64,000 bases of DNA from NCBI GenBank assembly GCA_965215565.1, contig CBDCDZ010000004.1, forward strand, positions 3,104,001 to 3,168,000, in the 5' to 3' direction. A program made the translations under genes and the position numbers. Below the pieces are notes generated by a model that saw nothing but the letters and a program-made list of their open reading frames with translations, was not told where the DNA came from and ran no database searches. Positions 1,803 to 55,790 of this stretch are shown piece after piece. Numbering within the stretch: position 1 is the stretch's first letter; every line of letters begins with the position of its first letter. This DNA is from Trueperaceae bacterium (GTDB lineage: Bacteria; Deinococcota; Deinococci; Deinococcales; Trueperaceae).

Positions 1803-1992
1803 AGGGTCTATTGTGACCTATTTCTGCGAAAGAGGTGTAGGGGATGTGAAAAGAATGCGTGGGGTAGGGAAACACTCGAGTTGGTCTGGGGTTGACCCGA
1901 GCTAAAGACCTCTTCTAAAGTCGGTGACGAAGACAAACGTAACAGCGTCAAGGTGAGCGAGTTTCTATAGCAGGTATCCGTATATTAAGAGA

Positions 1993-2130
1993 AGCGAGGT
2001 GATGCCCAGCAAGTATCAGCTTTAGGGCTAACAGATGAACTGCACACCTCGCTCACTAAGCTACACGGAGCTTGCCTGATACTAAGACGCTTAGTAGCCT
2101 CATAGACGGATAAGCAGCTACCGTGAGCAG
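1993..2130 (+). ncRNA. IS110 bridge RNA (target-binding and donor-binding loops)
   Basis: Stems 1993-2001/2045-2053 and 2064-2075/2114-2125 each enclose two segments that match the target and the donor junction; ends approximate. Confidence 0.85.
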
Positions 2131-2147
2131 CAACCTAAGGAGGTTGT

Positions 2148-3086
2148 ATGGTCATTATAGGGGTTGATCCACATCCGCAGAGCCATACCGCAGCAGCGTT
2201 AGATAAACAGGGCAAGGTATTAGGTCACTGCACCGTTACGAATACGGCTGAGGGCTTGGCAACTTTGGAGCACTGGATAAAGCGCTATGACGTTCAGCGG
2301 TGCGCTATTGAAGGGGCGAATAACCCCTTTGCTCGGAGGTTGAGTCAAGCGTTGCTCGGGCAGGACCATAAGGTTGTGGACATTAGTCCGAGTCTGACGA
2401 GTCAGTACCGCAGCAAAAGAGGACGCAAGAAGAGTGATGAGGTAGACGCTGAAAACGTAGCTCGGGCTGCTTTGGCTAATCCTGAGCTGACTACGTTTGC
2501 ACCTCGGCAAGCGGTTGAAGACCTCAAACATCTGACCCGCACCCGAGAAGCGCTAGCTAAACAGCTTACAGCGCACAAGCTGAGCTTAGCGAGCCTTGAG
2601 CTAGAGGTGGCTCGCCAAGCCGTCGAAGCCGTTATTGCAGTGCTTAAAGAACAACTCAAGACGCTCGAGCAGGCGATGAAAGCCCTCGTTGACGAACTGA
2701 TGCCTGAACTCTTAGAGGTCTTTGGCGTCGGCGTCGTTCACGCCGCCACGCTACTTGCTGAAGCAGGTGACATCCGACGCTTTCGTTCACAACACGCCTT
2801 TGCCATGTATTCAGGTTGTGCGCCTGTCGAGCGCTCTTCTGGTGGTCAGAAGAGAAGGCAACTCAACATCGGCGGCAACCGTCGGCTCAACCGCACCTTT
2901 CACATGATTGCCCAAGTCAGACTGCGCCACAGCGAACCGACAAGAGCCTATCTCGACAAGAAACAGCAGCAAGGCAAGACCCGCCGGGCTGCTCTAAGAA
3001 GTCTCAAAACCTATCTCGCAAGAGAACTCTTTCGTTTCATGCTGCAAGTCACTCAGCAGCACCCACAGAGGTGGAAAGGGGCTTGA
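2148..3086 (+). CDS. IS110 family transposase/bridge recombinase
   Basis: DEDD RuvC-like motifs GVDPH, AIEG, KSDEVDA; C-terminal SSGG serine and GGNRRL; AGGAGG RBS. Confidence 0.95.
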   Translation: MVIIGVDPHPQSHTAAALDKQGKVLGHCTVTNTAEGLATLEHWIKRYDVQRCAIEGANNPFARRLSQALLGQDHKVVDISPSLTSQYRSKRGRKKSDEVDAENVARAALANPELTTFAPRQAVEDLKHLTRTREALAKQLTAHKLSLASLELEVARQAVEAVIAVLKEQLKTLEQAMKALVDELMPELLEVFGVGVVHAATLLAEAGDIRRFRSQHAFAMYSGCAPVERSSGGQKRRQLNIGGNRRLNRTFHMIAQVRLRHSEPTRAYLDKKQQQGKTRRAALRSLKTYLARELFRFMLQVTQQHPQRWKGA

Positions 3087-3104
3087 CAACTCTATACTAA
3101 GTTC
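3083..3104 (+). promoter_or_regulatory. IS right-end -35 box that joins the left-end -10 (TATATT, 1981-1986) on circularisation
   Basis: TTGACA at 3083-3088; the circle junction gives TTGACA-N18-TATATT. Confidence 0.75.
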
Positions 3105-3204
3105 ATCTGGTTTGAGCCAGTCTCACTATGCAAAGCGGTGTCTAGCACGCACGTTCTGAGACGATATCTGCGCTCACCCGTCTCAGTATGTTTTGGAACT
3201 GCTA
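3103..3204. repeat. Family A MITE-like repeat interrupted by IS110 (other end at 1965-1978)
   Basis: Reverse-complement similarity to 22758-22870 and direct similarity to 34492-34515. Confidence 0.8.
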
Positions 3205-3274
3205 CTACATGCGTAGTCCTAGCTTTGGACCTCTGCAAACAGCCAGCGCGCGCAGCGTTCGTTAAGATAGCCCT

Positions 3275-3946
3275 ATGATAGATTTACAGACCCAAGCCAC
3301 GGACTACGCCGACCTCTTAAACACCTTTCTCGCCGACCTACCCGAGCTTGCGCTGGCGGAACTGGAGCCTGACCAGACCGCCCTCGCTAGCGTAGACGTC
3401 ATCGAAGGCTTTCACCGCAAAGGCGCACTCGCGAGCCCGCGCGTCGAGGCGATCATCCCCAGCGTGGTGGAGTTAGTAAGGCGCTTGAGCAATCACAGTG
3501 TTCCGCACGGCAATGTCGCGTTTATCCAGGACGCGCATCCGCAAGACGCGCAGGAATTTAGCGCCTACCCCGAGCACTGCGTCAAGGGCACCGAAGAAGC
3601 CGAAGCGGTAGCCGAGCTTAAAGAACTCCCGCACTGGGGCGACTACCAGCACTTCGAGAAGAACAGCATCGCGAGCCACACGAGCGAGGGGTTCGACACC
3701 TGGTTGGGTTCGTTGCAAGTCGAGAACATCATCGCGGTAGGCGACGTGACTGACCTCTGTTTGTACACGCTCGCGCTGCACATGCAGGTGCGCAACTTAG
3801 CAAACGGGCTAAAGCAGCGCATCATTGTCCCGGAAAGTTGCGTGCAGACCTGGGACGCGCCCGACCACCCCGGCGACCTCTACCACGCGCTGTTTCTGCA
3901 TCAGTTGGCGCGAAACGGGGTAGAAGTCGTTAAGGTCATCGCCTGA
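3275..3946 (+). CDS. Isochorismatase/nicotinamidase-family cysteine hydrolase
   Basis: VDVIEGF, DAH, PEHCVKGTEE, EKNS, GDVTDLC. Confidence 0.88.
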   Translation: MIDLQTQATDYADLLNTFLADLPELALAELEPDQTALASVDVIEGFHRKGALASPRVEAIIPSVVELVRRLSNHSVPHGNVAFIQDAHPQDAQEFSAYPEHCVKGTEEAEAVAELKELPHWGDYQHFEKNSIASHTSEGFDTWLGSLQVENIIAVGDVTDLCLYTLALHMQVRNLANGLKQRIIVPESCVQTWDAPDHPGDLYHALFLHQLARNGVEVVKVIA

Positions 3947-5465: not shown

Positions 5466-5605
5466 AAAAACCTCTCAGTCTGGTATACCTGGAGGCCTCG
5501 AAGAAGGGTGTGAAAAGGCTTAAATGTGAGGCTACCCCTTCATCTGAAGCAGCTTTGGCAACGGAGGACAACCTCTTGTTGGTACGAACTGAAAAGAGGT
5601 CTAGA

Positions 5606-5717
5606 TAGTGGTTCTAAGTCGAATGCCGCCGCGTGCTTCTTCTACTGTCTCCACGCGATAAGCAAGGGGTTGAAACCCCTTGCCTTGACATCATTACCAT
5701 TCCAGATAGAGCCACTA
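5606..5717. repeat. Family C MITE-like repeat with internal REP-like hairpin
   Basis: Ends TAGTGGTTCTA...TAGAGCCACTA; internal GCAAGGGGTTGAAACCCCTTGC; copies at 34824 and 55561. Confidence 0.85.
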
Positions 5718-5753
5718 CCAAGTGTGCAATTCCGTATCGCGTCCCAACCATAG

Positions 5754-22542: not shown

Positions 22543-22870
22543 TACTGTTTCCGGTTAGTTCCCTTTGGAATTAATTGGAAACAGTACTAAAGCAGTTCAC
22601 AGAAGTACTGCATTGGAAGAGCGCTTACGAAGTTTTGCCCCCGGCAAAAGCCTCAGTTCGAAGAACCATCCCGCTCTCAGGCAAAGCCTAGCGGGACGGC
22701 TTCGCCTGAGAGCGGGATTTCATTTAAGAATGTGCGTGTTCACCCAAGTTCTCTAACGTGAGACTGGCTCAAACCAAATGATATAGCAGTTCCAAAACAT
22801 ACTGAGACGGATGAGCACAGATCTCTGTCCGCAAGGACTAGCGGGATTTCATCTCAGAATGTGCGTGCTA
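22540..22870. repeat. Composite repeat cluster: family B hairpin (22540-22587) plus two family A units (22588-22783, 22782-22870)
   Basis: Near identity to 34481-34644 (reverse), 36750-36880 and 3105-3204 (reverse). Confidence 0.88.
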
Positions 22871-34480: not shown

Positions 34481-34644
34481 TATAGCAAGTATCATTTGGT
34501 TTGAGCCAGTCTCACGCTGGAGAACATCGACGAGCACGCGCATTCTTAAATGAGATCCCGCTAGTTCTTCGAACTGAGACTTTTGCCGGGGGCAAAACTT
34601 CGTAAGCGCTCTTCCAATTCAGTACTTCTGTGAACTGCTTTATA
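34481..34644. repeat. Family A MITE-like repeat, intact copy
   Basis: Ends TATAGCAAGT...ACTGCTTTATA; reverse copy of 22588-22783 without the internal hairpin insert. Confidence 0.88.
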
Positions 34645-34823: not shown

Positions 34824-34956
34824 GAGTGGCTCTAAGTCGAATGCCGCCTTGTGCTTCCGTGTGCTCCTTACTACCCATGTGATAAGCAAGGGGTTTCAAC
34901 CCCTTGCTTTGACACCCCTTGCTTTAATCTCACTGTCATTCCAGATAGAGCCACTA
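34824..34956. repeat. Family C MITE-like repeat
   Basis: AGTGGCTCTA...TAGAGCCACTA; similar to 5606-5717. Confidence 0.85.
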
Positions 34957-35021
34957 CCAAGATGAGGTAAGGTGCGTCGCTGCGACGCGCCACAGTGCCC
35001 CCGAAAAGAAGCCCACCTGCT

Positions 35022-36749: not shown

Positions 36750-36943
36750 TATAGCAGTTCACAGAAGTACTGAATTGGAAGAGCGCTTACGAAGTTTTGC
36801 CCCCGGCAAAAGCCTCAGTTCGAAGAACCATCCCGCTCTCAGGCAAAGCCTAGCGGGACGGCTCCGCCTGAGACTTGCTATGGAAGAACCATCCCGCTCT
36901 CAGGCAAAGCCTAGCGGGACGGCTCCGCCTGAGACTTGCTATA
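36750..36943. repeat. Family A repeat with a 61-bp tandem duplication
   Basis: TATAGCAGTT...ACTTGCTATA; unit repeated at 36822 and 36883. Confidence 0.88.
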
Positions 36944-55552: not shown

Positions 55553-55560
55553 AAATGAGG

Positions 55561-55683
55561 TAGTGGCTCTATCTGGAACGACAATGATGTCAACAAGGGG
55601 TTGAAGCCCCTTGTTCATCGCATTTATTTGTCACATAGAGACGGTAGAAGAAGCACGCGGCGGCATTCGACTCAGAACCATTA
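55561..55683. repeat. Family C MITE-like repeat (reverse orientation)
   Basis: Reverse complement of 5606-5717. Confidence 0.85.
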
Positions 55684-55790
55684 CCCAGGGTAGAGGCGGT
55701 TTATGAACCGCCTGAGATGCCGTGTTTGGATAGGTACAGGGAATACCGTAGACCCATCCCCAAACGTTGGTGTAACCTCTTGAAGCTGTC

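Follow-up and report, generated by a model that had tools for sequence, protein, structure and literature searches.

Described bridge systems of the IS110 family

The bridge mechanism of IS110-family elements and their weak excision relative to insertion are already in print (PMC11208160, PMC11208158, PMC11187229, PMC13626964, 10.1101/2025.05.14.653916, 10.1101/2025.10.25.684509), and the IS110/IS1111 targets named in these and related accounts include REPs, attC sites, the inverted repeats of Tn21 and other transposons, and genes of IS3 and other IS. The closest described systems are IS621 and ISCro4/IS622 (PMC11208160, PMC11208158, 10.1101/2025.05.14.653916; PDB 8wt6, 9t56). The element reported here resembles them, as far as the available text of these reports describes them, in i) a recombinase with domains PF01548 and PF02371, DEDD residues and a serine, ii) an RNA in the left end with a target loop followed by a donor loop (here predicted), iii) a 9-nt left and a 7-nt right target guide, a bulged right donor guide and handshake dinucleotides, and iv) a 2-bp core at both junctions, a junction promoter and a multi-copy intergenic repeat as target. 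The differences are as follows. The core is CT in IS621, ISCro4 and ISPpu10, whereas it is TC here, and the IS621 design tool (supplement 7, Durrant et al., PMC11208160) warns on cores that do not end in T. The left donor guide of IS621 covers donor positions 1-8, including the first core base, whereas the one here covers positions -1 to 6 and is displaced by 2 nt from the core. According to the prediction, transcription would begin with the stem of the target loop, which would leave no space for the 5' stem-loop of IS621. IS621 targets REPs, whereas the target here is the end of a MITE with 3-bp duplications. An earlier note on this DNA had described an IS621-type bridge layout; the loops, guides and handshakes fit that description, but the CT core and the left donor register of 1-8 do not, and for these two reasons the element is set apart from the IS621 clade.

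Other published elements share further traits with it, again within the available text. One RNA-guided IS110-family element likewise inserts inside the terminal repeat of another mobile element. ISEc21 (IS110 group; PMC11187229) has a left-end RNA, a junction promoter, a target inside another IS and natural retargeting in a relative, but its target is an IS3-family coding sequence, its recombinase has 358 aa and it is described without a duplicated core. ISPpu10 and ISPpu9 of Pseudomonas putida (10.64898/2026.03.19.712850; PMC12288879) are also multi-copy IS110 elements that use one repeat family and a structure-prone target; ISPpu10 differs in its REP targets, its CT core and the structural gate shown for it (10.64898/2026.03.19.712850). 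Within the accessible literature, an IS110 bridge RNA is treated together with a MITE for ISPpu9 only. In the same accessible literature we found no TC-core bridge system and no IS110 paper on Truepera, and TC-core members may already be recorded in ISfinder, patents, subscription papers or bioRxiv supplements (e.g. that covering 72 orthologs, 10.1101/2025.05.14.653916).

The element and its insertion site

The locus lies in a stretch of 64,000 nt (the window) of Trueperaceae bacterium GCA_965215565.1 (genome G000), contig CBDCDZ010000004.1, forward strand, positions 3,104,001 to 3,168,000. The element and the repeat that it interrupts comprise, in window coordinates:

1965-1967, + strand: left CTA of the 3-bp target duplication of the MITE-like repeat, the same CTA standing at 3205-3207
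1968-1978, + strand: first 11 nt of the repeat (subfamily A1), with the left target at 1970-1976 and the TC core at 1977-1978; identical in 7/7 full copies and 9/9 left junctions
1977-3104, + strand: IS110 element, core to core, 1128 bp including both TC cores; 7 copies, alike except for one base
2148-3086, + strand: IS110 recombinase, 312 aa, with D7, E55, D97, D100 and S231; based on PF01548 and PF02371, NF033542, the IS621 alignment and 76 homologs
3094-3104, + strand: left donor (ATACTAAGT) and the TC core on the right, without differences among 8 right junctions
3105-3204, + strand: rest of the MITE-like repeat, ending in CTGCTA, with the right target at 3105-3109; restored length 111 bp
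3205-3207, + strand: right CTA of the 3-bp duplication, matching the left copy

The genome contains seven full, near-identical copies, in which the protein is identical and the 1128 bp differ at a single base. All seven occupy the site TAGCAGGTA-TC-ATCTGG, with TC at both junctions, while the sequence farther upstream is unrelated between copies; the site is the 5' end of a MITE-like repeat of about 300 copies, modal length 111 bp, with 3-bp target duplications. An exact search with 20 nt of each IS end returned 9 left and 8 right junctions, every one at this site, those beyond the seven full copies belonging to two left-end remnants and one damaged copy. Removal of the IS at TC restores a repeat of 111 bp, the family mode, flanked by the CTA duplications. 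It had been proposed that deletion at the TC core would restore the repeat end and that the flanks of other copies would be ends of the same repeat family; both proposals hold, the second in 7/7 full copies, with the element ends mapping to the TC core. Among occupied repeats that retain a right end, the 3-bp duplication is kept in 4/6, and a diverged low-depth contig of run X1 lacks both the repeat and the IS and carries CTA once. A copy in genome G002, 92% identical, has the same guides and site as the window element.

Several of these loci carry further changes. In the two remnants (G000:C4:3341776 and C4:160184), which are traces of older insertions, the repeat 5' end is followed by 20-28 nt of the left IS end and then, after a fusion at short words common to both, by the interior of the repeat. 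An eighth copy (L014, G000:C4:3452600-3453500) shows many small deletions, and its 5' flank and the start of the repeat are each duplicated; since no contig of runs X1 or X2 supports the deletions, it is probably mis-assembled or a mixed site. The G002 locus L002 (G002:C2:567375) has an insertion of about 80 bp with short inverted ends just after the start codon, and its junction letters are the same in run X7.

The recombinase matched PF01548 and PF02371 at 78 and 74 bits, above the cut-offs, and the NCBIfam model for IS110 RNA-guided transposases (NF033542) at 171 bits against a cut-off of 140. D7, E55 and D100 are invariant among 76 homologs, and D97 and S231 are present in at least 90%. 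D97, D100 and S231 align with the D-x-x-D and S-G motifs of IS621, and D7, which lies outside that alignment, was assigned from the Pfam domain; the DEDD residues and conserved serine of IS110 are thus present in the 312-aa protein, and its designation as an IS110 bridge recombinase is confirmed by sequence as regards family and catalytic residues. It had also been called a compact system, which overstates its rarity: published IS110 recombinases have about 300-460 aa and those of the IS492/IS621/Piv branch 315-330 aa, as far as these are described, so a length of 312 aa is not special and falls barely below the group of IS621. The left non-coding end has 171 bp and the right end 16 bp after the stop codon, and the long, RNA-bearing right non-coding end of the IS1111 group is absent from the window element. 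The only relatives with solved structures found by sequence were the recombinases of IS621 and ISCro4, both distant (63 and 57 bits), and the closest named relatives are Trueperaceae records. Because the protein is only distantly related to that of IS621 (63 bits), we regard the element as one that works like IS621 but lies outside its CT-core clade. The recombinase is present in 5 of the 61 relatives searched, the source genome included; a contig scan with the single protein gave no relative, and alignment-based scans recovered relatives.

Taken together, the assigned family, catalytic residues, boundaries, copy number and sites, and the four guide matches, handshakes, covariation and covarying stems described below, all of them read from sequence, make it very probable that the window holds a real, recently active IS110-group element with a predicted bridge RNA programmed against a MITE end.

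The predicted bridge RNA

The 170-nt left end folds with z = -4.07. The following parts were assigned to the predicted RNA, to its promoter and, for comparison, to an unoccupied repeat:

1981-1986, + strand: predicted -10 box TATATT, which would lie 18 nt from the right-end TTGACA after end joining
1994-2053, + strand: target-loop stem region, from fold and alignment; 9/11 pairs of the outer helix show two-sided change
2009-2017, + strand: left target guide (GCAAGTATC), 8/9 to the used site and 9/9 to subfamily A2; covariation
2032-2040, + strand: right target guide at 2032-2038, matching A1 at 7/7, followed by the handshake AC (2039-2040), which complements the donor GT before the core
2061-2129, + strand: predicted donor-binding loop and stem, from fold and alignment
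2079-2086, + strand: left donor guide (ATACTAAG), matching donor -1 to 6, with positions 7-9 unmatched
2102-2112, + strand: right donor guide (AT, 2-nt bulge, ACGGA; bulged register), followed by the handshake TA (2111-2112), which complements the target TA before the core
3083-3088, + strand: predicted -35 box TTGACA, overlapping the stop codon, from the sequence and the joined junction
34483-34500, + strand: 5' end of an unoccupied repeat of subfamily A2 (TCATTTG), which fits the left guide and has one mismatch to the right guide

All four matches listed in the earlier note were recovered at their stated positions: 2008-2017 (AGCAAGTATC) agrees fully with 34484-34493 and at 9/10 with the used site, 2032-2038 is the reverse complement of TCATCTG (3103-3109), 2079-2086 is identical to 3094-3101, and 2103-2110 fits at 7/8. 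Two points were refined. The copy at 34484, which had been named as an intact repeat end, is identical to the left guide but belongs to subfamily A2 (TCATTTG) and mismatches the right guide. Positions 2103-2110 do match the reverse complement of 1977-1984 at 7/8, but in a contiguous register, and the bulged rule of IS621, which gives 7/7 (AT at 2102-2103, a 2-nt bulge, ACGGA at 2106-2110), is better supported. The two outer stems are as described, but the single-sequence fold pairs part of the target loop in a way unlike the alignment consensus. In 20,000 dinucleotide shuffles of 1990-2147, the four guide matches arose singly in 0.7-4.6% and jointly in none.

The structure was examined in an alignment of 22 left ends, 18 of them from 34 non-redundant parsed ends and 4 placed manually. 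Compensatory change is seen in 13 of the 17 pairs of the consensus. A hand-extended two-loop structure of 23 pairs is paired in 94.5% of cells, with two-sided changes in 17/23 pairs, compared with 27-49% of cells paired in slid controls. As a separate observation, 8 nt of the left target guide region (2009-2018) are complementary to the beginning of the region of the left donor guide (2076-2084), which gives a possible alternative RNA fold.

Joining of the IS ends gives TTGACA-18-TATATT, a predicted promoter, and 26/38 homolog junctions have a -10 box matching at 5/6 at 17-18 nt. The assembled contigs of 4 runs contain no joint of the right to the left end, a result that carries no weight for or against a circle, as rare forms are lost from contigs. 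A promoter scan of the linear sequence gave one weak site, as expected by chance, and a search of Rfam with 1900-3300 gave no match at E <= 0.5.

Covariation and targets of homologous elements

Seventy-seven homolog loci were collected, 51 of them with a parsable target loop. Guides were compared with the flanks of their own elements, leaving out the core because the parser required the core letters. The left target guide agrees with its flank at 115/140 positions (20 distinct guides; permuted mean 50.5, maximum 78) and the right target guide at 79/98 (14 guides; permuted mean 35.7, maximum 63), and neither score was reached in 20,000 permutations, p-values that are overstated since the homologs are kin and not independent. 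Covariation of guides with targets among homologs, which had been put forward as a check on the guide assignment, is thus borne out for both target guides. The fit is poor at a few loci, on the right side of L013 and the left side of L036. A homolog with 71% protein identity (L015) has the same target guides as the window element and the left flank ACAGGTA; on its right side, the core and the rest of the repeat are separated by an additional palindromic stretch of about 20 nt.

According to Hiraizumi et al. (PMC11208158), each right guide is followed by two bases that pair with the opposite substrate. Among 25 distinct rows, wobble counted, the four handshake bases fit the opposite substrate in 25, 24, 24 and 8, and their own substrate in 11, 2, 0 and 10. 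The base that fits in only 8/25 rows is the second of the donor loop; in the window element both dinucleotides fit. For the left donor guide, 15 distinct pairs showed matches at donor positions -1 to 6 in 14-15, at position 7 in 1, at position 8 in 11 and at position 9 in none, and in the window element this guide misses both core bases and position 7. The bulged right donor rule holds at 7/7 in the window element, L015, L016 and L063, with a variable bulge, and with one mismatch in L019; it is exact in 4/5 close loci parsed on both sides, the remaining 4 of the 9 loci not parsing on both sides. The TC core was found in 37/39 homolog loci with both junctions, a count partly built into the boundary search. 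No order of events was drawn from the homolog tree, in which deep branches are poorly supported and at least two rows (L021, L036) look mis-translated.

The flank ORFs were scanned for 143 of 220; most gave no match and several flanks are ordinary genes. The domain DDE_Tnp_IS240 of IS6-type transposases lies to the right of 6 loci (L004, L025, L027, L046, L051, L070), integrase-core domains adjoin 4 loci (L005, L024, L047, L074), and IS4/IS5 domains and IS630-type HTH domains adjoin 2 loci each. Seventeen of 42 left flanks, most of the 17 close kin, begin with GG seven bases before the core, which we take to mark an IS6 terminus. As judged from these flanks, several homologs appear to sit in the ends of IS6- or IS630-like elements.

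Other features were seen at single loci or in small groups. The source genome has a second IS110 of the same clade (L013, G000:C4:420855-421994; 56% identity), which has an internal stop. Its insertion site is a TC within an IS630-like element, a few bases from the end; two other copies of that element are present. The left guide of L013 fits at 8/9 and its right guide poorly. Six loci (L025, L027, L029, L051, L053 and L055) have insertions or duplications of 20-70 nt in the donor loop hairpin, with the guides kept. The target of L063 is a tandem REP/BIME-like repeat and not a transposon end.

The target repeat

Within 4 mismatches of the 23-nt empty site, the genome has 346 left ends of the repeat. 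A right end could be delimited for 235 copies, 107 of which are 111 bp long. The 3-bp duplication is present in 127/235 copies (shuffled maximum 18) and in 97/144 of the canonical copies ending in TAG...CTA (shuffled maximum 14). The ends are imperfect inverted repeats, TAGCAG and TGAGAC occurring at equal offsets in both consensus ends over 25 nt, and the repeat is short, gene-less and multi-copy. From these sequence features it appears to be a MITE-like element, and the proposal that the IS parasitises a MITE-like repeat is upheld by the location of 7/7 copies in the repeat end and by the duplications of the canonical copies. A TA-duplicating MITE of IS630 type was considered and dropped, as the duplication is of 3 bp and lies outside TAG...CTA. 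No autonomous transposase partner with the same ends was found in the source genome or in 30 loci from 16 genomes. The repeat end is present in 16 of 128 genomes of the family. Two main subfamilies, A1 (279/346) and A2 (61/346), differ at linked positions.

The family is modular, with copies of 111 to more than 200 bp carrying nested insertions both in the window (22588-22825, 34483-34642, 36750-36934) and genome-wide, among them a 44-nt palindrome (22675-22718). Inside the repeat lies an inverted copy of the 5' arm, with bases that change in step with those of the arm. In three genomes (G000:C4:~179850-179946, L080 and L087), the repeat 5' end forms short tandem arrays with units of 23-31 nt, which may be a footprint of repeat mobilisation. 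A second repeat family, with GGTAGTGGCTC ends, occurs in the window at 5601-5722, 34825-34961 and 55559-55688 and shares its ends with a multi-copy IS of about 780 bp; these are likely a MITE with its partner IS. The 23,751-bp contig G000:C3 has self-BLAST matches elsewhere in the assembly along its whole length.

Proposed mechanism and alternatives

Since 7/7 copies share one spot and the likely guide RNA matches it, we predict that the element works like IS621: the left end likely encodes a two-loop bridge RNA, which would guide the recombinase to the TC at repeat positions 10-11. By analogy with IS621, rare excision or copy-out would yield a circle, whose joined ends would form TTGACA-18-TATATT and drive expression of both RNA and recombinase. 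The target loop would pair with both strands of GCARGTA-TC-ATYTG and the donor loop with the circle junction; the top strands would be cut 3' of TC via S231 and then exchanged, with the handshake pairs helping. Insertion would leave TC at both ends and split the left terminal repeat of the MITE-like element, and this element supplies about 280 sites within one mismatch of the guides, most of them likely harmless and intergenic.

The exact strand chemistry may differ, because the available text of recent preprints reports single-strand copy-out and donor-only excision for IS110s. The same parts could serve mainly for single-strand copy-out or direct junction transfer, perhaps by means of a seek-type RNA processed down to the target loop, an option that we rate as a serious one, though the less probable. 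Features of this kind have been reported, in the accessible accounts, for CazIS110-1 (10.1101/2025.10.25.684509), for IS621 in a cell-free system (10.64898/2026.08.31.748434) and for ISEc21 (PMC11187229); seven near-identical copies would fit copy-paste, and the left donor guide stops short of the core. However, the donor loop is conserved, with a left guide that tracks changes of the donor over 15 distinct pairs, and the conserved junction promoter together with the donor loop points to a functional full-length RNA and a circle. This option is compatible with the targeting described and alters the pathway only.

Whichever the chemistry, the target guides are a hybrid, the left one fitting A2 and the right one A1, and only 2 sites in the genome match both fully. 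The left target guide has A where 9/9 left junctions have G, giving an A-C mismatch. Such a guide might be a selected compromise and not a tolerated mismatch, in that one RNA could serve either subfamily with a single mismatch; 234 A1-type and 52 A2-type sites are each one mismatch away, and G002 and L015 (71% protein identity) retain the A of the left guide. We think this unlikely. None of the 9 left junctions is in subfamily A2, all being A1-type, an outcome that is not significant (p ~0.15, 281/346 ends carrying G). In IS621, too, the guide and the commonest target disagree at position 4, just as here (supplement 5 of PMC11208160), and zero to two mismatches are usual in natural guides of the bridge systems described in print. 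A few A-C hybrid ends occur in G000 as well as in G005 and G066, so the A of the left guide may simply preserve an older target.

It is more doubtful still that the fold of the repeat, in which the 5' arm would pair with its internal inverted copy, acts as a second gate beside RNA pairing, as proposed for ISPpu10. In the internal inverted arm, the bases that set A1 apart from A2 (G/A and C/T) change correspondingly (among the commonest classes, 85 of G-C type and 17 of A-T type), and a target stem-loop is described as conserved in ISPpu10 homologs (10.64898/2026.03.19.712850). Yet the guide-defined 14-mer is by itself selective, as 279 of the 292 genomic sites with at most one mismatch and an intact core are repeat 5' ends; the computed ssDNA fold of the restored window copy has no long arm pairing, and the targets of homologs include IS ends and coding regions. 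That the protein picks the site and the left-end matches are due to chance can be dismissed as extremely improbable, for although each match is only 7-10 nt long and the RNA is known here by prediction, the four matches stand in the loop order of IS621, did not arise together in any of the 20,000 shuffles and belong to guides that covary with their own flanks in homologs. RNA-guided insertion as in IS621 is the reading that we retain.

Implications

A specialist would be little surprised by the element as such, because the mechanism has been in print since 2024 and insertion into repeats and transposon ends is known. The element may, with somewhat less than an even chance in our judgement, belong to an undescribed clade of short (about 312 aa) TC-core bridge recombinases outside the NT cores of IS621, with a left donor guide short of the core and guides repeatedly reprogrammed against mobile DNA (IS3 genes, IS6 termini and the ends of a MITE and of an IS630-like element), this member having a right guide of naturally 7 nt, handshakes that pair perfectly in either loop and a hybrid guide fitting two MITE subfamilies. 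Four donor motifs of the clade and two genus names are absent from the searchable supplements of PMC11208160, one PDF of which is not searchable. If the clade is real, bridge editing would gain a new core and new donor-loop rules. Since the TC core and the shifted left donor guide differ from those of IS621 and ISCro4, such elements could widen the range of bridge-editing sites and test which guide-core pairs are needed.

With seven fresh copies, one site and full handshake pairing, the element is an unusually clean natural system. Each insertion splits the terminal repeat of a MITE and would likely immobilise that repeat copy, and in relatives the RNA guides appear to have been retuned toward whichever mobile element is abundant.
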